From: Pseudovirgaria hyperparasitica
Lineage: Eukaryota
Strand: one strand, 5' to 3'
Length of the DNA stretch: 20,000 nt
Assembly (NCBI GenBank): GCA_010093815.1
Contig: ML996591.1
Part shown: one piece after another, positions 1,504 to 20,000 of the stretch
Position numbering within the stretch: the first letter of the stretch is position 1
Layout of the letters: the number at the start of each line of letters is the position of its first letter
The notes under the pieces: model-generated
Database searches by the model: none
Seen by the model: the letters and a program-made list of their open reading frames with translations, nothing else
Told to the model about the DNA's origin: nothing
Made by a program: the position numbers and the translations under genes

Positions 1504-1738
1504 TAAAACTTCTTATACTCTAACGGACTAAACTAGTTAATTCGGGGTAAAACAGCGATTTACATACATTAAACGATAGAGTACACCGAGTATAACAATC
1601 TCCGACATACATATATACGTATAGCGTATAATATACGACGATACTAATATATAGAGATACTATATATATACGCTTAAAGACTCTTTAATAATATAAGTAT
1701 AGACTATATCTAATAAATACTAACACGCCGACCCCCTT

Positions 1739-1769
1739 TTATTAGTTAAGGGCTACCCTTAACTAATAA
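1739..1769. repeat. 31-bp palindrome TTATTAGTTAAGGG-nnn-CCCTTAACTAATAA (also at 6549-6579, 8401-8431, 13211-13241, 19530-19560)
   Basis: 14-bp inverted arms with a 3-nt spacer, read directly at five positions; the 6549 copy has one G>A arm mismatch. Confidence 0.95.
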
Positions 1770-1921
1770 TTATAGCGGCCTTAGGCACTAATATACCCCG
1801 GCTTCTACCGGGTATACCCCTAATACTAGTATAGTAGAAACGGCTATATAGCGGTATATTCTAGAATAATTAAACCCCCGTCTAATAAATAACGAATAAC
1901 TAAGGGCGTATAATACTATAG

Positions 1922-3256
1922 ATAATAGAGATAGAGGGGACTCTACCTAGAGAGACCCTCCCGGATAAGATTAACTACTAGATAGTATATATAGAGAGGG
2001 AAGTTAAGAAGGGAGAAACGGCCCTACTTAGTATCTTCTAGAACCTTATCCGGAATATTAGAGAGCTTACCGTAGGAGTAAAATAGGCGCTAGAATTAGA
2101 CCCGGAATCTAGACTAGATCGTATAGAGGCCAGTCTATAGAGGATCTAGGAGGGCCTTACCTAGGGAAAACGCCCTAGTACGTGGGTATAGATCGCCGCA
2201 CCTATAAACGGAATAGCTATATTAGCTAAAATACTAAGGGCACCTATAGACGGGGTATATAGTATATAAGTTACTATCTAGAATAAAGAAGTACTCGTAT
2301 AAGTCTAGTAAGCGTCCCTAAAGGATATTATAAATAAGATTAATAAATAGAAAGGGATATAGTTAAATATAGTAGCCGCTAAACTCACCCTAGAAGGTAT
2401 AGTACTAACTACTACTACTAATACAGCCTAGTAGACTATCTCGCGTAACCCAAACGTAATTAATAATATCTTCCCTAGCGCGTCCGTCCGCGTAACCACG
2501 TATCTAATATAGATATATACTATCTCTATCCGAGAATACATTATTAGAGAAGATAATATTAAGTAAATAGAGTAATCTAACGAACCAAAGTACCCTAGAA
2601 TTAAGATCGCGAAGGCGTGGTGGAAGAACGTCTAAGGGATTAAGATAAAATTAAAAAAGTACTCTACTATAATAGTAGAGCTTAGGGACCCTACTCTCGT
2701 CTATAGAATAACATAGAAGGGCTTCCTAGCTAAAGGAGAGCTACTTACGGCGGAACTATAGAATAGAGCATAGATAATAACGTAATACTTTAACTATTAG
2801 AGATATAGATATACTAGATAGAGGTACTCTTAGAAGACCGCCTATAGGTAGTATAAATAGGGCTATAATACTAAGGCATGCCCTTATAAGACGCAGAGCG
2901 ATAAGACGCGAGATAGGGATACCGCTAAGTACTCTAACTACGACGGGAAATACCTATTCTAGTTAGTAACGTATACGAAACGTAAGTAGGTCGTAGAATA
3001 TATTAACGTGATAAAGATAAGAGGAGTAAGGTAGATATACTAAGCTATAAGGCCCTCGCTACCCTCGCCGCTATCCCTAACTTTACTTATAAATCTAGTA
3101 ATTACCCCCTAAAGGGGAGAGGATAACGTGTAATAGTATACTATATAGAGAAAGATAGGCCGACCCTAGGGTATACTTAAAGCCGCTACCGCGCGAGGAT
3201 AATCACGCCTTAGCGCCACTAATATATAGACTTAAACTTTCCCTAGCACCTAATAA
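1922..3256 (+). pseudogene. LINE copy 1 ORF1 (gag-like nucleic-acid-binding protein); start approximate
   Basis: De-RIPed PSTWAQVAAP at about 2174-2203; QCFNCQGYGH..C, CGQC..GH....C and CSNCDGKH......C knuckles at about 2780-2980, all in one frame; ends PSTQ*. Confidence 0.8.
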
Positions 3257-6200
3257 GGGTATAAGATATACTTATTATTATATAGGTAAACGTATAATAT
3301 AAATAAGAAAACTAAGTAACGCTTCTAGAAGAAATAGGAGCCGTAATAATAGCTATCTAGGAACTATATAAATACTACTAAACTAATAAGCTAATAATAT
3401 ACCTAGGATACTATACTATCCACCCCATAGGCCCGGATAGAAGAGTTATATTTTATATATATAAGTCGATCCCGCTCTTAGAATAGTCTTATACCGAATA
3501 TAATAACCTCTAGATAATACTATATCTCTAGATAAGTATAGGGCCTATCTACATCTATAATATCTATAATTAATAGTAATTACTTATACTAGACGATATA
3601 CTAGAGGGCACCACGACGCCGGGATAATATATCCTCCTAGGTAACTTTAATCTCTACTATAGATAGTAGGGAGGCCTAGCCGTCGTAAGAGAAGAACTTA
3701 GAGTAAGGGAACTATATATACGGTACCATGACTTTCTATACCTCCTTATACCTATAGGGTAGATTACCTAGAGAAAATATAAATAGAATAAGGACGGGTC
3801 TACGCTCGACCTTACCCTTACTACTAAGTACATTAGCTATAGAGTATAGTACTACCGCCCGAGCCGGATATAGACGGACTCCGACTACGAATATATAGAA
3901 ACCATAATAGACGTCTCTACTCTTAATAAATAACGTAGAAAATAGCTATAGAAGGATACTAATTAGGATAAATACCTAGAGGACCTAGAATCGGCGATTC
4001 TAGACCCCTCTATAGTCGACGTATCTAACGGCCTAGCTATAGATAAGGCCGTATAAGTCCTCCTTTAAGTATACTAAGCCACGAGAGATAAATACGTGCT
4101 ATACTAAATATATAGACCTCTAGAAGCAAGGGGTATACCTTAAATACGAGAGTATAGAAGAGACGCCCGTAGACTATATATATATATATACTATATCCGG
4201 ACGACTAAGGCGTGGGAAGAGTAGAAGAAAGTAGTACGATATCGTAATAGGGCCCTCTATAATAAATAACGAAAGTAATAGCGTATAATTACCGATAAAT
4301 ATATATAGTAAGCCGTAGAGCTATAGCGTATAGTAAAGTAGGCTAAGGGTATAGACGCGCCGATACCGCCGCTACTAATGCCTCCCCTAATATACTAAGA
4401 GAGAATATACTCTATAAGTCTAGAGAAGATGGAGATCTTACGTAAAGTTATATTCCCCCTCCCGGAGCTAGTAGACCTATTAGATATTAATAATACTAAA
4501 TATCTAGATATAATTAATATCCCCTAAGAGGTTATCGAGGAGAATATACTTAACGCCGTTAAAGTACTCCTAAATAATAAGGTACCTAGACCGGATAGGA
4601 TACCGAATAGGTGCCTTAAACGTACTATACTAGCTACCCTACCACTTATTAGTTATATATTTTAAGTATATATTAAGAACGGATACTACCTCTAAAGCTT
4701 CCGGGCTATCTATACTATTATACTTCTAAAACTAGGGAAGAACTCTAACTCCCTAAAAGAATGGAGGCTAATTACCCTCCTCTTCTATCTTAGGAAGATA
4801 CTAGAGACTATAATTACGAAGAAGATAAGCGCCGTAGTATAGAAATATAACCTCCTCCTAGTAAACTAGAAGGCGAAGGCTAGAAGCTCTCTAATTACTA
4901 CTATCTAATATATTCTCGAAGTTATCTAGACCGTATAGAAGTAGGGACGTATAGTAACGCTACTCTCTCTTAACATGGCCGGCGCATTCGATAAAGTAAA
5001 CCATATAAGACTTATCTATAACTTATAGAAGAGGCGTATACCCGCGTAGATTACGTGGTTTATATAGTCCTTCCTTACTAAAAGAGTTACCTAGATATAT
5101 ATCTCTAGATATCGAAGTAAGTATAAGAAGACGGCTTACGGCATCCTATAAGGAAGTACTATCTCCCTAATTCTATTTCTCTTCTTTACTATAGACCTTC
5201 TCTAGAGAATATAACGTATAGAGGTAGTAGGGTACGTAGATAATATATACCTTCTAGCTATTAATAATAATACTAGCTAAATATATAGATAACTCGAATA
5301 AGACTACGGGAGATATATCTAATAGGTAAAGCGCTATAGAGTAAAGTTCGCCCCTAAAAAGTACTAACTTATATACTTTATTAACTACTATAGGAAATAG
5401 ACTACTAGGGAAGGTAAGCGATACTCTAGAATAGACGCCTTTAACGAACCGCCGATATAAAGTATACACGTACTTAGCGTTATAATTAATAATAAGCTTA
5501 AATAGAGACCATAGGTAGTATATACCGTTTCTAGGGCCCTCTAGATAGAAGCCGCTATATAATAGATTATAGCCTCTACGTGGGGAACCGCCTAGGATAA
5601 GGCACGCTAGCTATATATATCTATAGTATAACCCGCCTTTACGTACGGACACGAGTACTAGTATACGGCCCTTATATAGACTAGGCGAATAAAGCTCGAA
5701 TCTATATAGGACCGTATACTCCGTCTTATATTAGGCGTATATAAAGCTACTAACACGGTACTACTACGACGCGAGATAGACGTTATAAGTATATATAACT
5801 TCTACTAGATATAGAGGGTAGTATACTTTACTAAATAATAAGCATAGAAATATATAGGAAATATAGAATATACCTTCGCCGTACTACGTATACGAGTTAG
5901 TGTATACTACTAAGTACTCTTATATATAGGCCGGACTCGACTATAGTATAAGTACCTAATAGAAATAGACTTAAACTAAGTAGTATAAGAGATTAAGGAT
6001 AACCTAGATACCCTTCTAGACTAATAGAGCCTTTAAGAGCTCAGACAAAGCATACAGTCATAGATCTAAGATAAGTAGAAAGAGATACTCCGGGCCTAGT
6101 AGGCCTTCTAGTAGAATAGATATCTAGAGTAGATCTAAGAACTATAGAAGGAGCCGAGTAAATAGATATATAAAGGGCTTATAAAGGCCTAGGTATCTAT

Positions 6201-6555
6201 ACTTCTCTAAGCCCGAACGGGCGCTATAGAACTTCTATACTACCTCTATAAGAGAGGCGTCCCTAATATATCTCTATAGTATAAGGCGTGCGGCCGGAGA
6301 GGTATAATACGCTACTATCTTATAATATACCCCGATCTTTATACGTAAAGGTAGAAGCTTATCTATATAATAAGAACCTCCGATATCGTACGATAGCTTA
6401 ATAAGTACTCTAAGGATATTACCCGGTAGATAATTATATACCTACTACTCCTCTAATTCTAGTAGACCTAGAAATATATACTAGAAGAGACCCGGTATAC
6501 GCTAGTAGTAACCCGATATATACCGGAAGAACCCCGGGAGAACTCCGATTATTAG
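3253..6555 (+). pseudogene. LINE copy 1 ORF2 (APE endonuclease, reverse transcriptase, C-terminal zinc knuckle), about 1100 codons
   Basis: De-RIPed motifs AIQEP (3352), LGDFNLHH, STLDL, DSDH, KAPGPDGIPN, WRPITLL..LGKILE, LSLDMAGAFDKVNH, GIPQGS..SPILF, YVD(D) at 5233, FAPEK, QARTG...C..C...H...CP. Start, YVDD and end fall in the same frame. No RNase H domain was recognised. Confidence 0.9.
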
Positions 6556-6825
6556 TTAAGAGTAGCCCTTAACTAATAACCTCTATACCTATATATACTA
6601 CCTAAGGGTAAAATAATAGTAATATAGACTATAGGCTAATAGGCGTACTCTATAGCTATATACTTAAGACGAAATAGAGGTTTAATAAGATATAGTTATA
6701 GATATAAGGAAGTTTTTCCCTATAGGGTTTCTTCTTATATAATAGCTTAGACTAGAGGAGGCATAGGCCTATAGAGTACTACTCTACCTAGTTATATAAT
6801 ATTATTATTATTATACTCTAAGAGA

Positions 6826-7002
6826 CTAAACTAGTTAATTTAGAGTAATATAGAGATCTATATATATTAATTAATAGAGTATACTAAGTATAATAACCTC
6901 TAATATATATATATATATATAGTATATAGAATATAATAATACTAATATATAGAGATACTATATATATATACTTAATAACTCTTTAAAGATATAAGTATAG
7001 AC
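6826..7002 (+). mobile_element. 5' UTR of the older, more heavily RIPed Tad-like LINE, part 2; cut by the Gypsy insertion
   Basis: Colinear with about 1528-1705 and 8190-8367 (ctaaactagttaatt...ataagtatagac) but more mutated; homology stops where the LTR begins. Confidence 0.8.
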
Positions 7003-7531
7003 TATAATAAATTACTAGCTAGAGCCATAGAAGGATACATAGACTCTAGCACGAGTAGCGTAAGAGGTAGTATAGTATATAGAAGAGGTGCCTATAATAT
7101 AATAGGTAGCCTTAGGTAGTAACCTAAGGCTAAGATAGATACCTATAGGAAGAACTAATTATAGATACTTAGAATAGGTATTCTAAGTAATCTATATAGT
7201 AATTAGAAATAGAATATTAGTATTCTAAGTAATATACTAAATACTTAGAATAAGTATTTTAATTAGAGGACCTTAGTAGAACTATATAGACCCTTTAGAC
7301 CTAATCTCTAGAGATAGTTCTATAGTAATTAATTTAAACTTATACTAATATAATTACTACTTTACTTACCTACTAGCTAGTTACTATTTATACTCTATTA
7401 ATACTTACTATAAATCTACTTATACTCCTCTAAGTCTTCTAAGTACCTTTATCTTAAGGAAAGCTAGAATACTCTATATAACGGACTACTTAAGGGATAG
7501 ACCGTATCCTTATCTAGGAAGGTTTATTATA
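7003..7531 (+). repeat. 5' LTR (about 529 bp)
   Basis: Begins tataataaa and ends tttattata, a perfect 9-bp terminal inverted repeat consistent with RIPed TGT...ACA; the first 353 bp match the 3' LTR. Confidence 0.8.
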
Positions 7532-7533
7532 GT

Positions 7534-7542
7534 TTAATTACT
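7534..7542 (+). promoter_or_regulatory. Primer-binding site, probably self-priming type
   Basis: ttaattact lies 2 nt after the LTR end and is the reverse complement of agtaattaa at 7324-7332 inside the LTR. Confidence 0.55.
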
Positions 7543-8583
7543 CTACTTAGACTCTAAAATAAGTATTTACGCTATCTATTTAAATGTAAAATAGTAAATA
7601 ATAGATAATTCTTATCTTTGCGAACTACTCTATAAGTACTAACTATAGAGTAAGTTAGATATCTTATTACTAAACTAGGGGAGTAAGTTATAGAGCTCTA
7701 GAGAGAAAACGTTAAACTTAGAAAAGCTAAAGAGAGCTTTAAAAGAAAAATCCTAGAATCTTTTAAAGGTAAGCGAAGTAAACTCTAAGGATTTCTAATA
7801 TAGATTAGAATATACCTTTAGACCTATTAAATTTAGAACCTAGAAGAATAAGTTATATTTACCGCTAGACTACTAAAGAGAGACGTACTCGCGTAGTTCG
7901 AGCCTTACTTAAGGGACTTTATAGAAAATAATCCGTAGAATTAATAGAATAATACTACTAAGATCTTTAAACATTTTAAAGAATTTAAGGAATATATTAA
8001 AACGATCTTTAGAGATATAGATAAATAAAGAATAGCTAAGAGACGAATCTAGTAAATAGTCTAGATAAAATCTATATCTAACTACGCCTCTAAATTCTAA
8101 TAAATCTCTAGTTAGCTAGAATAGAATAATAAACCTCTAATTCTCTAGTTCTATACTAGATTATATAGAACTTCTCACACCCTAACGGACTAAACTAGTT
8201 AATTCGGGGCAAAACAGCGATTTATATACATTAAACGATAGAGTATACCGAGTATAATAACCTCCGATATACGTATATACGTATAGTATATAATACGCGA
8301 TAATACTAACGTGTAGAGATACTATATATATACGCTTAAAGATTCTTCGATAATATAAGTATAGACTATATCTAATAAACGCCGACACGCTAACCCCCTT
8401 TTATTAGTTAAGGGCTACCCTTAACTAATAATTATAGCGGCCTTAGGCACCGACGTACCCTAGCTTCTACTAGGTATACCCCTAATACTAGTACGGTAGA
8501 AACGGCTATATAGCGGTATATCCTAGAATGATTAAACCCCCGTCTAATAAACGACGAATAACTAAGGGTATATAACGCTATAG

Positions 8584-9918
8584 ATAATAGAGATAGAGGG
8601 GACCCTACCCGGGGAGACCCTCCCGGATAAGATTAACTACTAGATAGTACGTATAGAGAGGGAAGTTAAGAAGGGAGAAACGGCCCTTCTTAGTATCTTC
8701 CGGAACCTTATCTAGAATATTAGAGAGCTTACCGTAGGAGTAAAATAGACGCCGGAATTAGACCTAGAATCTAGACTAGATTATATAGAGGCTAGCCTAT
8801 AGAGAATCTAGGAGGGCCTTACCTAGGGAAAACGCCCTAGCACGTAGGTATAGGTCGCCGCACCTATAAACGGAATAGCTATATTAGCTAAAATACTAAG
8901 GGCACCTACGGACGGGGTATATAGTATATAAGTCGCTATCTAGAATAAAGAAGTACTTATATAAGTCTAGTAAGCGTCCCTAAAGGATATTATAAATAAG
9001 ATTAATAAATAGAAAGGGATATAGTTAAATATAGTAGCCGCTAAACTTACTCTAGAAGATATAGTACTAACTACTACTACTAATACGGCCTAGTAGACTA
9101 TCTCGCGCGACCTAAACGCGATTAATAATATCTTCCCTAGCGCGTCCGTCCGTGTAACCACGTACCTAATATAGATATATACCGTCTCCGTCTAAGGACA
9201 CGTTATTAGAGAAGATAATATTAAGTAAATAGAGTAATCTAATAAACCGAAGTACCCCGGGATTAAGATCGTAAAGGTGTAGTAGAAGAACGTCTAAGGG
9301 ATTAAGATAAAATTAAAAAAGTACTCTACTATAATAGTAGAGCTTAGAGACCCCGCTCTCGCCTATAGAATAATATAGGAGAGCTTTCTAGCTAAAGGAG
9401 AGCTACTTATAGTAGAACTATAGGATAGGGTATAGATAATAACGTAATACTTTAACTATTAGGGATATAGATATACTAGGTAGAGATACTCTTAGAAGAC
9501 CGCCTATAGGTAGTATAAATAGGGCTATAATACTAAGGAATACCCTTATAAGACGTAGAGCGACGAGACGCGAGATAGGGATACTACTAAGTACTCTAAC
9601 TACGACGGGAAACATCTATTCTAGTTAATAACATATACGAAATATAAGTAGGTCGTAGAATATATTAACGCGATAAAGATAAGAGAAGTAAGGTAGATAT
9701 ACTAAGCTATAAGGCCCTCGCTACCCTCGCCGCTATCCCTAACTTTACTTATAAATCTAGTAACTACCCCCCGAAGGGGAGAGGATAACGTATAATAGTA
9801 TACTATATAGAGAAAGATAGGCCGACCCTAGGGTATACTTAAAGCCGCTACCGCGCGAGAATAATCACGCCTTAGCGCCACTAATATATAGACTCGAACT
9901 TTCCCTAGCACCTAATAA
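8584..9918 (+). pseudogene. LINE copy 2 ORF1; start approximate
   Basis: Colinear with 1922-3256 at offset +6662. Confidence 0.8.
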
Positions 9919-12900
9919 GGGTATAAGATATACTTATTATTATATAGGCGAACGTATAATATAAACGAGAAAACTAAGCGACGCTTCTAGAAGAAATAGG
10001 AGCTATAATAATAGCTATCTAGGAACTATATAAACACTACTAAACTAACAAGCTAATAATATACCTAGGATACTATACTATCTACCCTACGGGCCCGGAT
10101 AGGAGAGTTATATTTTATATATATAAGTTAATCCCGCTCTTAGAATAGTCTTATACCGAACGTAATAACCTCTAGATAACGCTATATCTCTAGATAAGTA
10201 TAGAGCCTATCTATATCTATAATATCTATAATTAATAGTAATCGCTTACGCTAGATAATATACTAGAGAGTACCACGACGCCGGGATAATATATCCTTCT
10301 AGGCGACTTTAATCTCTACCATAGATAGTAGGGAGGCCTAGCTATCGCGAGAGAAGAACTTAGAGTAAGGGAACTATATATATAGTACTATAACTTTCTA
10401 TACCTTCTTATACCTATAGGGTAGATTACCTAGAGGAAATATAAATAGGACGAGGATAGGTCTACGCTCAACCTTACCCTCGCTACCGAGTATATTAGCT
10501 ATAGAGTATAGTACTACCGCCCGAGCCGGATATAGACGGACTCCGACTATAAATATATAGAAACTATAATAGACGTCTCTACTCTTAACGAATAACGTAG
10601 AAAATAGCTATAGAAGAATACTAATTAGAATAAATATCTAGAGGACCTAGAATCGGCGATTCTAGACCCCTCTATAGTCGACGTATCTAACGGTCTAGCT
10701 ATAGATAAGGCCGTGTAAGTCCTCCTTTAAGTATACTAAGCTATAAGAGATAAACACGTGCTATACTAAATATATAGACCCCTAGAAGCGAGGGGTATAC
10801 CTTAAATACGAGAGTATAGAAGAGACGCCTATAGACTATATATACGTATATACTATATCCGGACGACCGAGGCGTAGGAAGAGTAGAAGAAAGTAGTATA
10901 ATATCGTAATAGGGCCCTCTATAATAAATAACGAAAGTAATAGTATATAATTACTAATAAATATATACGGTAAGCCGTAGGGCTATAGCGTATAGTAAAG
11001 TAGGCTAAGGGTATAGACGCGCTGATACCGCCGCTACTAATGCCTCCCCTAATATACTAAGAGAGAATATACTCTATAAGTCTAGAGAAGATGGAGATCT
11101 TACGTAAAGTTATATTCCCCCTCCCGGAGCTAGTAGACCTATTAGATATTAATAATACTAAATATCTAGATATAATTAATATCCCCTAAGAGGTTACCGA
11201 GGAGAATATACTCGATACTATTAAAGTACTCCCGAATAATAAGGCATCCGGACTAGATAGAATACTAAATAGATACCTTAAATATACTATACTAGCTACC
11301 CTACCGCTTATTAGTTATATATTTTAAGTATATATTAAGAATAGATACTACCCCTAAAGCTTCCGGGCTATCTATACTATTATACTCCCGAAACTAGAGA
11401 AGAACTCTAACTCCCCAAAAGGATAGAGACTAATTACCCTCCTCTTCTATCTTAGAAAGATACTAGAGACCACGATCGCGAAGAAGATAAGCGCCGTAGT
11501 ATAGAAATATAACCTCCTTCTAGTAAACTAGAAGGCGAAGGCTAGAAGCTCTCTAATTACCGCTATCTAATATATTCTTAAAGTTATCTAGACCGTATAG
11601 AAGTAGGGACGTATAGTAACGCTACTCTCCCTTAATATAGCCGGCGTATTCGATAAAGTAAACTACACGAGACTTATCTATAACTTATGGAAGAGGCGTA
11701 TACCCGCGTAGATTACGCGGTTTATATAGTCCTTCCTCGCCAAAAGAGTTATCTAGATATATATCTCTAGATATTAAAGTAAGTACGAGAAGACGGCTTA
11801 CGGTATTCTATAAGGAAGTACTATCTCCCTAATCCTATTTCTCTTCTTTACTATAGACCTTCTCTAGAGAATATAATATATAGAGGTAGTAGAGTACGTA
11901 GACGATATATACCTTCTAGCTATTAATAATAATACTAGCTAAATATATAGACGACTTAAATAAGACCACGGGAGATGCGTCTAATAGATAAAGCGCTATA
12001 GAGTAAAGTTCACCCCCGAAAAGTACTAACTCATATACTTTATTAACTACTATAGGAAATAGACTACTAGGGAAGGCGAGTAATACTCTAGAATAGACGC
12101 CTTCGACGAACCGCCGATATAAAGTATATATATACTCGGCGTTATAATCGATAATAAGCTTAAATAGGGACCATAGGTAGTATATACCGTTTCTAGGGCC
12201 CTCTAGATAGAAGCCGCTATATAATAGATTATAGCCTCTACGTAGGGAACCGCCCGGGATAAGGTACGCTAGCTATATATATCTATAGTACGACCCGCCT
12301 TTACGTACGGACACGAGTACTAGTATATAGCCCTTATATAGACTAGGCGAATAAAGCTTAAATCTATATAGAACCGTATACTCCGTCTTATATTAGATAT
12401 ATATAAAGCTACTAATACGGTACTACTACGACGCGAGATAGATATTATAAGTATATATAACTTCTACTAGATATAGAGGGTGGTATACTTTACTAAATAA
12501 TAAGTATAGGAACGTATAGAAAATATAGAATATACCTTCGCCGCGCTACGCGCGTAAGTTAGTATATACTACTAAGTACTCTTATATATAGGCTAGACTT
12601 AACTACGGTATAAGTACCCGATAGAAATAGACTTAAACTAAGTAATATAAGAGATTAAGGATAACCTAGATACCCTTCTAGACTAATAGAGTCTTTAAAA
12701 GCTTAAATAAAGTATATAGTTATAGATCTAAGATAAGTAGAAAGAGATACTCCGGGCCTAGTAGGCCTCCTAGTAGAATAGATATCTAGAGTAGATCCGA
12801 GAACCATAGAAGGAGCCGAGTAAATAGATATATAAAGGGCTTATAAAGGCCTAGATATCTATACTCCTCTAAGCCCGAACGGACGCTATAGAACTTCTAT

Positions 12901-13217
12901 ACTACCTCTATAAGAGAGGCGTCTCTAATATATCTCTATAGTATAAGGTGTGCGGCCGGAGAGGTATAATACGTTACTATCTTATAATATACCCTAATCT
13001 TTACACGTAAAGGTAGAAGCTTATCTATATAATAAGAACCTCTAATATCGTATAATAGCTTAATAAGTACCCTAAGAACGTCGCCCGGTAGATAATTATA
13101 CACCTACTACTTCTCTAATTCTAGTAGACCTAGAAATATATATTAGAAGAGACCCGGTATACGCCGGTAGTAACCTAATATATACTAGAAGAACCCCGGG
13201 AGAACCCCGATTATTAG
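9915..13217 (+). pseudogene. LINE copy 2 ORF2 (APE, RT, CCHC)
   Basis: Colinear with 3253-6555. GDFNL is intact at about 10302-10316 and the catalytic YVDD is intact at 11895-11906. Confidence 0.9.
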
Positions 13218-13461
13218 TTAAGGGCAGCCCTTAACTAATAACCTCCGTATCTATACGTACTACCTAAGGGTAAAATAATAGTAATATAGGCTATAGGCTA
13301 ATAGGTATACTCTATAGCTATATACTTAAGACGAAATAGAGGTTTAACAAGATATAGTTATAGATATAAGGAAGTTTTTCCCTATAGGGTTTCTTCTTAT
13401 ATAATAGCTTAGACTAGAGGAGGCATAGGCCTATAGAGTACTACTCTACCTAGTTATATAA

Positions 13462-13492
<31 letters not shown>

Positions 13493-14682
13493 CTAGATTA
13501 TATAATAATATTAAGGACGAAATCTCTAGAGAGAGAGAGACCGTTCTACCAACCTCTAGAAGTATATTAAGCTTATAGTCTAGATTAATAACTAACTATA
13601 TAAGAGACGCTATAAGAAAAGAGGGAAGAAGGTCTTTTAACCCGTACTTAAATAAGATATAAGGAAGGGCTATATTAATAAAGCCCTAAACTACTTATAT
13701 AAGGGATTCTATAATAGACCTATACCTATAGAACTTAGCACCTTATAGATAAAACATCTATCTAATAAAGAAAAGGAGTAACTAAAGAAGGAAGGTAAGT
13801 ATCTCTACTATAAGGAAAAGGGACACTATATACGTGAATACCTAAAAAATAAGAATAAGAAAAATTAGATTAAAGACCCGGTACTAAGATAAGGGAACTT
13901 CGCCGTAGAAAAGGAAGAAGTACCTTATATAGCTATGTTATAGACTAGTTATACTAATAATCTCTATTTTATATATAAGTTAGAGAAAGATAGTATAGAT
14001 TAGTATCTAAAGAAAAGAAACGTCTTAATAGCTAGTAAATAACCCCTATCGCTTTATAAAAAAGTAGAACTATAGAAACACTTAGAAGTAATAAGAAGAC
14101 CTAAACTAACTAAAGAAATAGTACCTAAAGAAGTAATAATTAAAGAAAGTACTATAGAAGAGGATAGTAAGAAAGAAACCCTTACTATAGAGGAACTATA
14201 TAATAAGTTAATAATAATATAAGACCCTATTACTTACTATATTATCTATTACTATAGAAAGTATATAGATAAGAATAATAGAGACCCACCTAGAAGAGGC
14301 GTAGAAATCTAATTAGAAGATAACTAACTTATTTCACTCTATTACGAGGAACACGGTAAGACTTTCTAGGTTACTTATATCTATAATAACTATCTTCGCC
14401 ACCTCTATAAGAAGTAAACCTAGAAATAGTTTCTATAACGGTATTAAAACCAAGTAATCCTAAAAGCCTTTAGAGACAAAGATATATAATAAAAACGAAA
14501 TTTGCCCGGAGAACCAATACACCCAATGCCCGGACGTTACGTACCAAACTTATTTAATATCCAAGGCTATTATATGGTATAACCTTCGAGTAGACTTAGA
14601 TAAAATTAAGAAATAAGTTTAATCTATAATCTAACTTATATAAGAAATAGAATAAGAACTTAGTAAGCTACGAAAAAACTAG

Positions 14683-17600
14683 GAAGGCCGGATATACTAA
14701 GAGAAATAGCTAAGCTAAAAAAAAAATCTCTCGTATCTATTAGTAGCTTAGATAATAAAACACGAATATCTCTTAAAATTTAGCTCTATTAAAAATACTC
14801 TATTAAGGTACTAATTAATAGCGGAGTATAGTCTAATTTTATCTCTCTAACTATAGTAGATAAACTAAAAATACCCTATAATAGTAAAGAAGAACTATAT
14901 AAACTATCCACGTTCAAAGGACTCAATATAGAATATACTAATAGAATAGTATACTTAGAAATAGAACCTCTGGATTTAGTCTTAATAGTAGGACACTAAT
15001 AATTACGACTAGATATAGCGGAACTAGAATAATATAACTTAATCCTAGAAATACTATAGCTCGAAGAAGTTAACCCTACAATTAACTAGAAAACTAAGAA
15101 AATTATACCCTAGAGAACATTAAGACCCTTAGAAACTATTAAAGAAGAAGTAGAGATTAATAAACCTATAAAGGCGCTAATAACTAGAAAGTCTATCTAC
15201 TATATTCGGAAGCTTAACGATAAGTAAGGTAATATAAAGAGTAGACCCTTATATAAGAAATACGTAGTATAATAAGGCACGCCTATAGATAAATAGATTT
15301 AAAAAATAAATAACGTACTTATACTAAAGGAATACTACTAATACTATATTATCTTTAAAGAAGAACTTAAGACGGGATTACTAAAGTATAGCCTATATAA
15401 TTATATAATAATACTCTAACTAGAAATAGCACCTATATTTAAAAGTATATACTAACTTACCGAAAAATAACTAGAGATAATATAATAATATATTAAGAAA
15501 ATAGAAGTAAAGGGATATATCCGACCCTCTAAATTACCTATAGAATATCTAATACTCTTTATACTAAAAAAAAGATAGGAGCGAACGACCCTATATAGAC
15601 TATTAATACTTAAATAATATTACTATTAAAAATAGATACCCTTTACCCTAAATTAATAAATTATAGAACTAACTCGTAGAAGCTTAGTACTTTACTATAA
15701 TAGACTTATAAGGAGCCTATAACCTTATATATATAGTAGAAGGAGATAAATAGAAAATAGCTTTTTAGACTTAATACGGCTACTATAAATATCTAGTAAT
15801 ACTATTTAGGCTAACTAATATACTAGCTATATTCTAAGTACTAATTAATAATATACTAAGAGAATATCTCGACTACTTTATAATAGTCTACCTAGACGAT
15901 ATATTAATTTATTTAAGAAACCTATTAGAGTATAGAGAATACGTATATAAGGTACTTTAGAAATTACGGATAGTAAATCTACTAGTAGAGTTAAAGAAGA
16001 GTATCTTCTATATATAGAAAGTTATATTTTTAGAATTTAAGATTATATCTAGAGAAATATAAATAGACCTAAAGAAAATTAAGACTATTAAAAACTAGAA
16101 GTAACCTAAGATAGTTAAGGAAATCTAAGGATTTACCGGATTCACGAACTTTTATAGAAAATTTATATATAACTATTCTATAAAAACGGCTCTACTATAT
16201 AAGCTTATAAAGAAAAATATAATATTTAAATAAGGACTAAAGTAAGAATAAGTATTTTAATAGTTAAAAGAGTCTATTATAACTAAACCCGTATTAAAGA
16301 TATACTAAATAGAAAAACCCTATAAAGTTAAGATAGATATATTAGAATTTACTATTAGAGGGTAGTTAACCTAGATAGATAAATAAGGGAAAAGATACTC
16401 TATAGTATTTTACTCCCGAAAATTCCGAGGGTTAGAAATAAACTAGCTAATCTATAAAAAAGAACTCTATACTATTATTAAATACCTTAAGAAATAGAGA
16501 AGCTACCTCTATAGATTAGACTATATAGTAAAGATATATACTAACTATAAAAACCTAACTACCTTTATTACTACGAAAGAACTCTAAAAGAAATAAATTA
16601 GTTAGTATAAGCTTCTTACGGAATTTAATATCTAAATTATATACTATAAAGGATCCGAAAACGGAAGAGCTAACGCCCTTAGCTAATAAGCGGAATATAA
16701 GTAAAAAGAACCTACTATAGAATAGACTATATTAGAGGTTACTAAAGATAGAAACCTTAGACTAACGCGATATATTATTGTTAGGCACGTGCCTACCAGT
16801 TAATTATACATGTGTATAGTAGTTGTATATAAGTAGTGTACTCCACCCTTAAAGTAGTAGCTTCAAGATTCGGTCCTTTTGGTATAGTTGGTTGGTACGT
16901 GGAGCCCGCCTCCTTACAATTATAGTAATATAGAAAGAATTTATATTTAAGGACCCGGAGGGAAGGAGTATAATCCTAAGAGACGAGGCCTACTATTTTA
17001 TTAAAGAATTCTATAAAGATCTAATACACGGATATTAAGGAGAAATAAAAACTTATAAAAGATTTAAGAGATACTATATAACTTATAAGGAAAGATAAGT
17101 TATTAAGGAAGTTATATAAGACTATATTCTATATAGTAAAAGCCGATCTAATAGATATAAACTATATAGAGAATTCTAACTAATTCCTCTACTATTACGT
17201 ACTTAGAAAATAATCTCTATAGACTTTATAATAGATCTACTACTCTTAAGGAAACTAGTTTCGCGAGTATAGTATAATACTATACTAGTAGTAGTTAATA
17301 AGCTTACGAAGTACGCCTACTTTATACCCTATTAAAAAGATATAGATATAGAAGAAATAGTATATATATTTCTATAAGTAGTTATAGCGAACTATAGTTT
17401 ATCTAATAGTATTATATCTAATAGAGATAAGCTCTTTATATTAAACTTTTAGAAAAGTCTAGTATAATAGCTTAGAATAAACTACCGACTATTAATAGTC
17501 TATTACCTATAGATAGATAGATAAATAGAGATTCTAAATAGAATACTAGAATAATACCTTCGATACTATATTAACGAATAATAAGATAATTAGATAGAAC

Positions 17601-18290
17601 TACTACTATTAGCTTAATTCGCCTATAATAGCGCGATAACCTTAACGACTAAAACCTTACCGTTCTATATAAACTATGGATTTAACCCTATAGCTAGCTA
17701 TAATTATAGACTAGAATAGTCTATACCGAAAGTAAAGATTAAGGTAGAATAGCTATATAAGCTATACTCGGAGCTATAGACCGAACTTTCTTTTATAAAT
17801 AAAAGAATAGTAAAATATATAAATTAAAAGAGAATAAAGAGACCATCCCTAAAGGGGGGAGACCTAGTATTCCTTATATAGAAAAATATTAAGATATAAT
17901 AACTAAATAGTAAATTAGACTTTAAAAAGATTAGACCTTTCTAAATAAAACGAAAATTTTTAGAAGTTAATTATAAACTATCTTTATCTTAGAATATAAG
18001 AATATACCTAGTATTTTATATCTTACTACTAGAACTAGTACTATGTAATATAAAAATTAAAACTAATATTAAAGCTATAGATAAAGAATTTAAAGTCGAA
18101 AGAATTCTAGAATCTAGAATTAGTAATAAAATACTAGAATACCTAATTAAATAGAAGGGCTACGGACACGAATTAAATATTTAGAAACCTAGGGAATATT
18201 TAACGAACTACTAGTAACTATTATAGAAGTTCTATTAAATAAATCTAGATTCACCTAGTCCTCTATACTAAGCTAAGAATTATTAAAACC
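14683..18290 (+). pseudogene. Gypsy pol: protease, RT, RNase H, integrase, chromodomain; ends approximate
   Basis: De-RIPed LIDSGAQSNFIS (14811); KGYIRPSKSP, KNRYPLP and intact YLDD at 15889-15900; TDAS..AIGG, KELYAI, TDHKNL and ENGRADALS; H....HGH.G, ISMDF, SDRDKLF, HPQTDGQTE, GPF and HPVFH.SLLEP; chromodomain F.VERIL...EYLIKWKGYGHE.NTWEP at about 18086-18235. Confidence 0.92.
16779..16918. mobile_element. 140-bp solo LTR (or LTR-like mini-element) inserted between RNase H and integrase
   Basis: TGT...ACA termini (tgttagg / ccttaca), 5-bp duplication attat at 16774-16778 and 16919-16923, many CpA/TpG retained; removal restores the pol frame. Confidence 0.85.
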
Positions 18291-18831
18291 TAAGGGAGAA
18301 TTCGGAACCTCCTTAACGGTAACTCTCTATTATTATTTAAGTTACTTCTCCTTCTTCTTAAGATCTATTACTAATAGATTCTAATAAAGTATATTATTTT
18401 AACGACGCTCTAATAGCTTCTACTATTTCTCTAGACACTCTAGACGCGTAAAGGCGGTCTAAGCGTCCTACTAAGCTTTTCGCTAAGTAGCGGCCGTATA
18501 TTCTTTCTCTAACTTAAGACAAGCCTTTTTAGAACGAACCTTCTTATCTAGAAATATTACTTACTAGCTCTAATAAGAGAAAAGGGAACTTATAAGATAA
18601 TTTACTTAAAGTCTTAATTCTATACTTACTCGCCGAGCGACTCTAATAAATATACTCTAAGTACTTATCGGACTTCACGAATACCACCCTATAAGTTAAA
18701 CTATATTTCTTATAGAACGAGTAAGGGAAAGGCATTTTATTACCTTTATAATTAATTAAAATAGATAAAGTAACTCTCTATTTCGCCGGATTAGATTTAG
18801 AAGGCTTAACTAATTTTATAACTCTAGATAT
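18189..18831 (-). pseudogene. Antisense accessory gene of the chromovirus: Zn2Cys6-like cysteine cluster plus coiled coil, one putative intron (18548-18593)
   Basis: Six TAY codons (RIPed TGY) spaced X2-X6-X9-X2-X9 at 18723-18622, preceded by MPFP; ATAAGT (RIPed GTRAGT)...TAG intron; exon 2 reads as an E/K/R/Q/A/L-rich helix. The start and stop are inferred. Confidence 0.65.
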
Positions 18832-18928
18832 AACGGAAGAAAAGAAAGAAGGGCTCCTTACCGAAGAAAATTAGGATAAACCCTCCGCTTATAAGTAACT
18901 ATAGAAGTACTTTAGGACGAAGTACCTT

Positions 18929-18936
18929 AGAAGGGG
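18929..18936 (+). other. Polypurine tract
   Basis: agaagggg 5 nt upstream of the 3' LTR start. Confidence 0.65.
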
Positions 18937-18941
18937 CATTA

Positions 18942-19294
18942 TATAATAAATTACTAGCTAGAGCCATAGAAGAATATATAGACTCCGGTATAAGTAGCGT
19001 AAGAGGTAGTATAGTAGGTAGAAGAGGTGCCTATAATATAATAGGTAGCCTTAGGTAGTAATCTAAGGCTAAGATAGACACCTATAGGAAGAACTAATCA
19101 TAGATACTTAGAATAGGTATTCTAAGTAACCTATATAGTAATTAGGAATAGAATATCGGTATTCTAAGTAACATACTAAATACTTAGAATAAGTATTCTA
19201 ATTAGAGAACCTTAGTAGAACTATATAGACTCTTTAGACCCGACCTCTAGAGATAGTTCTATAGTAATTAATTTAAACTTATACTAATATAATT
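18942..19294 (+). repeat. 3' LTR, left part (interrupted by LINE copy 3)
   Basis: Matches 7003-7355 with transition-type differences; homology breaks exactly at the LINE 5' terminus gaactt. Confidence 0.9.
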
Positions 19295-20000
19295 GAACTT
19301 CTTATACATCTCTAAGAGGCTAACTTGGTCTATTCGGGGTAATATAGCGAGATACACACCTTAATCGATAGAGTACACCGAGTATACTAACTACTACTAT
19401 ATATACGTATATATAGCGTCGAAACCAAGACGTTATCGCCGTATAAAGATATATATATACCCTCTTAAAATTCTCACGGAGATAGAGGTACGGACTATAC
19501 TACTAGAACACCGACACGCCGACCCCCTTTTATTAGTTAAGGGTAGCCCTTAACTAATAAATATAGCGGCCTTAGGCACCGATATACCCCGGTATATACC
19601 GGATATACCCCTACTAGTACGATAGAAAAGGCTATATAGTAATATTACTAAGGGTAGCTATATACCTATCTAAAACGTAGAACATATCTAAAGACGCACG
19701 CCGCTATAGATAGACGGAATAAAGGGGACCCTAAGAGGGGAAACCCTCCTAGATTATATTAACTACTAGGTAGTATATATAGAGAAGGAAGCCGGAGAGG
19801 GCTAGAAGACCCTTCTATATATATTCTAGAACCTTATCTAGAATCTAAAGAGAATTATAGAGGAGGAGAAGAAGATATAACTAGGAGGACTAGAGGGTAG
19901 GCTTAACTAAATAGAGGCTAGCCTACGTAGAATCTAGGAGGAACTTACTTAAGGTAAGCGCCCTAGTATATAGATATAAATAGTAGTAATACTAGAAGCT
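19295..20000 (+). mobile_element. 5' portion of a diverged Tad-like LINE (copy 3, different subfamily); runs off the right edge
   Basis: Starts gaacttctt like the other copies and aligns with about 1506-2200, but with many transversions. Retains the 31-bp palindrome and the start of ORF1. Confidence 0.88.

Follow-up and report, generated by a model that had tools for sequence, protein, structure and literature searches.

A palindrome at gene edges of a LINE family and an unrelated Ty3/Gypsy family in Pseudovirgaria hyperparasitica: a candidate RNA pairing signal

Why does the same 31-bp palindrome stand at both ends of the coding region of a long interspersed nuclear element (LINE)? The question is raised by a 20,000-nt stretch of Pseudovirgaria hyperparasitica contig ML996591.1 (the window; coordinates given without a locus name are in window numbering), for which an earlier sequence-only reading had proposed a selected cis-element, i.e. 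a protein operator, an RNA hairpin pairing the 5' and 3' ends, or a recombination site. We report that the palindrome is real, far beyond chance and wider in scope than the LINE alone. Our data tentatively favour a sequence-specific RNA pairing signal built into the LINE family (two sites) and an unrelated Ty3/Gypsy family (three sites), and copied between these co-resident retroelements. The motif is so far restricted to one genome and its function is unproven.

The window contains five palindrome sites (Table 1), while 200 shuffled windows gave no match. Four of these are the predicted pairs at both ends of the coding regions of LINE copies 1 and 2, the 3' site of copy 1 being the same palindrome except for one arm base, and the fifth belongs to the diverged copy 3. 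As proposed, the 3' site supplies the in-frame TAG that ends open reading frame 2 (ORF2), and this applies to both copies. The structure of the motif is different from that first described. In copies that have escaped repeat-induced point mutation (RIP) it reads TTATTAGTCAAGGGC-W-GCCCTTGACTAATAA, i.e. two 15-bp arms around a single central A/T. The un-RIPed arms contain CpA/TpG and are therefore RIP targets, which contradicts the view that the arms are largely RIP-proof; both arms were converted symmetrically, and the window sites represent the RIP end state, still symmetric. Judged from the un-RIPed copies, RIP has created the asymmetric 3-nt core, which consists of the central A/T and two RIP-damaged arm bases. 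With a single central A/T the "orientation" of a site depends on one base only. Genome-wide, 17 of the 29 LINE 5' sites have T at this base and the other 12 have A, whereas 44 of the 46 LINE 3' sites have A and two have T, varying mostly by subfamily. Within elements both inverted and direct pairs occur, and these together with the centre of the copy 3 site do not sustain the claim that the two sites are inverted relative to each other. Among sites, the 10-bp half-sites are constant and the 5-bp centre is fixed in length and variable in sequence (GCWGC, CAATC, GATTC), and the arms give stop codons in two of three frames.

A RIP-tolerant pattern identified 502 sites in the 35.4-Mb genome (reversed-pattern control, 0), and a shorter pattern with ≤3 mismatches identified 627. 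The exact un-RIPed cores (n=8) are all in transposable element (TE) contexts except one site, to which no context was assigned. Another six cores with one mismatch have unrelated centres; about six are expected by arithmetic, but the reversed-pattern control gave one.

The motif is also present in an unrelated Ty3/Gypsy family (with RNase H and integrase domains) at three fixed sites. B1 is located approximately 500 bp 3' of the 5' long terminal repeat (LTR) and has 10-bp arms and the centre CAATC; B2, with 19-bp arms, is 2.7 kb beyond B1; and B3 is 7.3 kb beyond B2, approximately 70-100 bp upstream of the 3' LTR. B1 and B2 read in the only stop-free frame of the motif. An in-frame stop, present in 11 of 11 copies, follows 7 nt after the end of B2, with a start codon directly after this stop (ATG in three copies and a RIP form of ATG in eight). 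Moreover, five of the six pol homologues examined (seven were found) start 41-129 residues upstream of the first conserved block, at about the B2 position, which suggests a real ORF boundary near B2. B3 supplies the TAG of an extra ORF, ORF3, in the same arm position as the TAG of LINE ORF2. The motif was not found in the Gypsy element of the window, which belongs to another family. Among the seven motif contexts only one of 21 flank pairs is homologous, and at least five of the contexts in which the motif stands are non-homologous; it appears therefore to have been moved or copied as a sharply bounded module.

Is the motif conserved beyond its surroundings? Conservation was counted on LINE copies chosen by ORF2 protein homology, since motif-chosen copies would make the argument circular. 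Copies 2 and 3 of the window are 68% identical overall; all 28 arm bases are the same, as had been noted for the diverged copy, against 5-17 differences in each of the 20 remaining 31-base blocks. In 27 of 30 copies the arms are intact, with no transversion or indel, and in the remaining three, at separate loci, a shared microhomology-bounded deletion has removed the left half of the 3' site; L063 is a fourth half-deleted copy, and all four retain the right arm. Within the LINE family the excess in conservation is modest, as one of the 15 other 30-mers likewise lacks transversions. At greater distance it is clearer: in the relic L090 the motif is 84% conserved and its flanks are 37-65% identical. 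In 10 un- or lightly RIPed sites the right arm of the sense strand varies less than the left one, where two A>G changes preserve pairing in the form of G-U. Taken together, a selected cis-element is plausible in view of the recurrence in non-homologous contexts and the persistence of the motif beyond its flanks, with the half-deleted copies and the motif-free relatives elsewhere (see below) pointing the other way.

If the motif acts as an RNA pairing signal, each site would fold in the transcript as a 14-19-bp hairpin, and any two sites could swap their hairpins for a more stable 31-bp duplex, aided by the nucleic-acid chaperones of the elements. Within one RNA the duplex would link the start of the coding block with its end, giving 5'-3' closure with the ORF2 stop beside the ORF1 start; alternatively it would form between RNAs, resulting in dimerisation and co-packaging. 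Pairing with other sites would constrain the sequence itself, beyond its shape, and because sister sites have to pair with each other the sequence would be kept without covariation. Spreading among sites and families may have occurred via reverse transcriptase (RT) template switching, and RIP would have symmetrically rewritten the motif afterwards.

Several observations are consistent with such a signal. Of the five sites of the two families, four are no more than about 10 nt away from a start or stop codon, e.g. 2 nt before the LINE ORF1 ATG. All seven contexts fold with z between -2.4 and -6.1, and for full LINE sites the computed gain of the duplex over separate hairpins is 12.6-17.7 kcal/mol; the antiparallel 5'-3' duplex, computed to be 17.7 kcal/mol below two hairpins, would bring the stop of ORF2 to within a few bases of the start of ORF1. 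The right arm left in the four half-deleted copies can still pair with the 5' site. Moreover, a 5'-truncated LINE 3' relic (L247:400-450, genome contig C36), positioned in what we take, from reading by eye, to be a HET-domain gene, breaks off inside the left arm of the palindrome, which fits reverse transcription stalling at an RNA hairpin.

Other data weigh against this reading. Any perfect palindrome would give such folding and duplex energies, which are thus no proof of function. In the 10 rows compared, covariation does not exceed that of shuffles (134 of 500 reach the observed value), and one non-RIP double change was seen, next to the loop. The half-deleted copies at separate loci show that an intact 3' site is not strictly needed, and the asymmetry between the arms comprises a handful of events only. 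That the motif "ends the ORF" is partly by construction, because its arms supply stops in two of three frames, and the stop after B2 could be RIP-made, with which the 11-copy comparison is compatible. There is no palindrome at the LINE ORF1/ORF2 junction. Finally, none of 79 related LINE loci from other fungi (447 kb in total) has the half-site, and no comparable palindrome was found at 19 ORF2 ends of related LINEs (best 4-10 pairs, compared to 17 here). The sequence-only reading had taken absence in relatives as decisive; the LINEs compared have only approximately 23-45% protein identity, i.e. they are not close relatives. That an unrelated TE of the same genome, the Gypsy family, has the motif had escaped that reading. 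A search of Rfam gave a chance-level match only (24.9 bits, cut-off 62), and the exact palindrome pattern had no match in metagenome contigs and viral contigs.

We place the RNA pairing signal slightly ahead of a DNA operator, which we regard as somewhat unlikely. The operator would bind a dimeric or paired DNA-binding protein, either a host AP-1/Yap1-like factor or the Gypsy ORF3 product, for expression or against silencing. The sequence is conserved beyond its structure, with half-sites that are fixed and a centre varying in sequence and not in length, and each arm has TTAGTCA/TGACTAA, 11 bp apart, heptamers that are listed as Yap1 response elements (PMC6545440). That TE-encoded proteins bind motifs in their own element has a precedent in VANC (PMC5735166). 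An operator has, however, no requirement to be positioned 2-10 nt from start or stop codons or inside an ORF, and there is no host gene set with the motif, given the contexts of the eight exact un-RIPed cores. The fold of ORF3 adds to this, since it is PhyH/YbiU-type (Z 20.5, rmsd 3.2, 275 aligned), well above NgTET1 (Z only 9.1), and no fold is assigned to its N-terminal domain.

The ORF3 itself (L023:5333-8275, genome contig C4) encodes approximately 950 amino acids with a helical N-terminus, a Cys/His cluster and a PhyH/YbiU-type 2OG-Fe(II) dioxygenase domain. A TET/AlkB-type demethylase was considered and rejected, as the fold groups with small-molecule PhyH enzymes. There are 50 scored matches to ORF3 in the genome. 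Via ORF3 the motif also draws attention to a large unnamed family of PhyH-like proteins (621 representatives at E≤1e-30), of which a fungal Gypsy element carries a member. Fold and family searches with the N-terminal and Cys/His domains, which were not folded alone, gave low scores only, and relatives of ORF3 and of the Gypsy pol were not found in viral contigs. The nearest published case found is that of orchid Gypsy elements with an m6A demethylase domain (PMC9289625).

It is also conceivable, though we consider it unlikely, that the palindrome is a passive mini-insert, a functionless hairpin copied into tolerant spots of active elements, whose symmetry is maintained by copying from one arm to the other and which multiplies along with its hosts. 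It has sharp boundaries within unrelated flanks and occupies UTRs (untranslated regions), ORF tails or a linker, all of which are tolerant positions; half-deleted copies still spread; the other fungi tested do not have it; its arms create stops in two frames; and within the LINE family an equally transversion-free 30-mer exists. A passive origin leaves unexplained that four of the five sites are so close to codons, and that the motif is retained in L090 with its decayed flanks. Furthermore, no empty-site allele was found among the 30 independently chosen LINE copies, and no direct target duplication is evident outside the palindrome arms, where a TA duplication is not distinguishable from the arms. 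Even as a passive insert, a 31-bp hairpin colonising five sites would be unusual.

The usual view is that LINEs and LTR elements each rely on cis-signals of their own. An idea to which we assign a low probability is that the palindrome represents a common address across retrotransposon classes, bracketing LINE ORF1-ORF2, Gypsy gag-protease and Gypsy pol-ORF3; LINE RNA would pair with Gypsy RNA, or recruit the Gypsy dioxygenase-domain protein, such that the LINE hitchhikes on Gypsy packaging, translation or anti-silencing. One exact signal fixed at gene edges of both classes would show module exchange, and possibly cooperation, between them.

The loxP/FRT-like layout noted in the sequence-only reading would point to a tyrosine-recombinase site that inverts or excises the coding block, which we now consider very improbable. 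In loxP and FRT the inverted arms are about 13-15 bp, and the motif is alike in arm length and in inversion, with arms on either side of the coding region. Its centre base varies as a flip would give (one of 43 within-subfamily changes, 0.06 expected, P about 0.06). In contrast to loxP and FRT, it has one central base in place of a 6-8-bp asymmetric core. Swapped or hybrid flanks were seen in none of 119 distinct sites (fetched loci only, about a quarter of the genome total); in 114 the two flanks derive from the same landmark, and the remaining five show an assembly gap, a truncation, a foreign junction or a small duplication, or have neither flank assigned. No joint between the two sites, as expected if the intervening 4.8 kb were inverted or deleted, was found in four contig sets (from at most two samples), two of which have the empty insertion site at the true ends of the LINE. 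A genome search with PF00589 gave no match (divergent or RIP-damaged fungal recombinases are not covered), and the LINE target duplications and tail lie outside the palindromes. With no recombinase and no recombination products found, the analogy to loxP appears to fail, and a recombination site is largely refuted. Equally improbable is a splice signal masked by the hairpin, with CTAAT in the right arm as what we presume to be a branch-point-like sequence, as only the two 5'-most sites have a YAG that ends 15-18 nt downstream of the branch-like A, such a YAG is missing in the other five contexts, and the symmetry of the palindrome is left unexplained.

How does the candidate RNA pairing signal compare to known systems? 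In retroviral and Ty1 RNA, palindromes serve as signals for dimerisation and 5'-3' cyclisation (HIV DIS, Ty1 PAL/CYC). These and the motif are self-complementary RNA able to pair within or between genomic RNAs; here the stem is 31 nt and near-perfect, repeated at ORF edges and identical in a LINE and an LTR element. The GalEa Conserved Hairpin Site (CHS) is described in Copia elements only, as a single site right after the 5' LTR replacing the primer site, with 9-bp arms 12-41 bp apart (PMC5445492). Both are conserved non-coding hairpins in ascomycete retrotransposons, common to families of one species. The palindrome differs in having 15-bp arms, 2-3 sites per element, none of which abuts an LTR, and another sequence; its hosts are a LINE and a Gypsy family and the nearest site is approximately 500 bp from the 5' LTR. 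The stop/start reinitiation structures of SART1 and HvV190S (PMC10275272) resemble B2 in having structure beside a stop/start junction, whereas four of the five sites here are not at such a junction and that of LINE ORF1/ORF2 is without palindrome. Like the motif, VANC targets of VANDAL transposons are repeated in an element encoding an accessory protein; they are often tandem repeats and variable between related TEs (PMC5735166), and binding by the Gypsy ORF3 protein would be hypothetical. The motif would accordingly belong with retroelement pairing or hairpin signals as a variant not yet described in the literature covered, where searches, including one with the exact arm string, found no description (most subscription journals were outside coverage).

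The LINE hosting the palindrome has the features of a non-LTR element: ORF1, ORF2 with apurinic/apyrimidinic (AP) endonuclease and RT, a target duplication and a simple-repeat tail. The palindromes are not at its ends, as the UTRs extend beyond the sites by 230 nt (5') and 220 nt (3'). The named homologues are ascomycete RT proteins, and the LINE is presumed to belong to the Tad clade. An un-RIPed copy (L053:1890-6931, genome contig C52, minus strand) has a target duplication and an approximately 290-bp deletion near the ORF2 end, and a second un-RIPed partial copy is present on genome contig C39.

Table 1. Palindrome sites and retroelement features of the window
Feature	Position	Strand	Remarks
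Palindrome, 5' site of LINE copy 1	1739..1769	+	Ends 2 nt upstream of ORF1 start codon
Palindrome, 3' site of LINE copy 1	6549..6579	+	One arm mismatch; left arm contains ORF2 stop 6553-6555
Palindrome, 5' site of LINE copy 2	8401..8431	+	
Palindrome, 3' site of LINE copy 2	13211..13241	+	ORF2 stop 13215-13217
Palindrome, 5' site of diverged LINE copy 3	19530..19560	+	Centre base opposite to copies 1 and 2
LINE copy 1 (RIP-inactivated)	1504..6812	+	13-bp target duplication 1491-1503 / 6813-6825, (TAT)n tail
ORF1 remnant, gag-like	1772..3250	+	Weak zinc knuckle match in un-RIPed copy L053
ORF2 remnant, AP endonuclease and RT	3253..6555	+	
LINE copy 2	8168..13491	+	13-bp target duplication 8155-8167 / 13492-13504, (TAT)n tail; inside LTR element
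LINE copy 3, diverged 5' part, continues beyond window	19295..20000	+	
Chromodomain Ty3/Gypsy hosting copies 2 and 3	7003..19294	+	Other family than palindrome-bearing Gypsy; motif absent

An older copy of this LINE (1480-1503, 6814-7002) carries LINE copy 1 in its 5' end and is itself cut by the LTR element, and copy 3 is located in the 3' LTR of the Gypsy element of the window. The LTRs of this element (7107-7265, 19046-19204) have other inverted repeats, with 9-11-bp arms. Elsewhere in the genome, approximately 55 bp of LINE 5' UTR, ending exactly at the palindrome, is fused to an un-RIPed RT fragment of another Gypsy (L056:7990-8050, genome contig C47), and microhomology with the palindrome arm may be involved at this junction. 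A single un-RIPed variant with a symmetric double change beside the centre (L064:7596-7626, genome contig C19) is located 770 bp downstream of a Myb-domain gene; it was considered as a diverged LINE 3' end and rejected, the flank similarity not being significant (z about 2), and is counted as a context of its own without assignment. In metagenome DNA a DNA transposon, which hosts a LINE, has inverted ends with short internal palindromes with TGACT cores (L131:1-120 and 6040-6090); despite the similar heptamer these were rejected as relatives of the motif, as they belong to the DNA transposon ends and match at chance level. Finally, the window is heavily RIP-mutated past approximately base 1100, and between 1100 and 1300 gene-like DNA that is un-RIPed (GC 52%) gives way abruptly to AT-rich, RIPed DNA.

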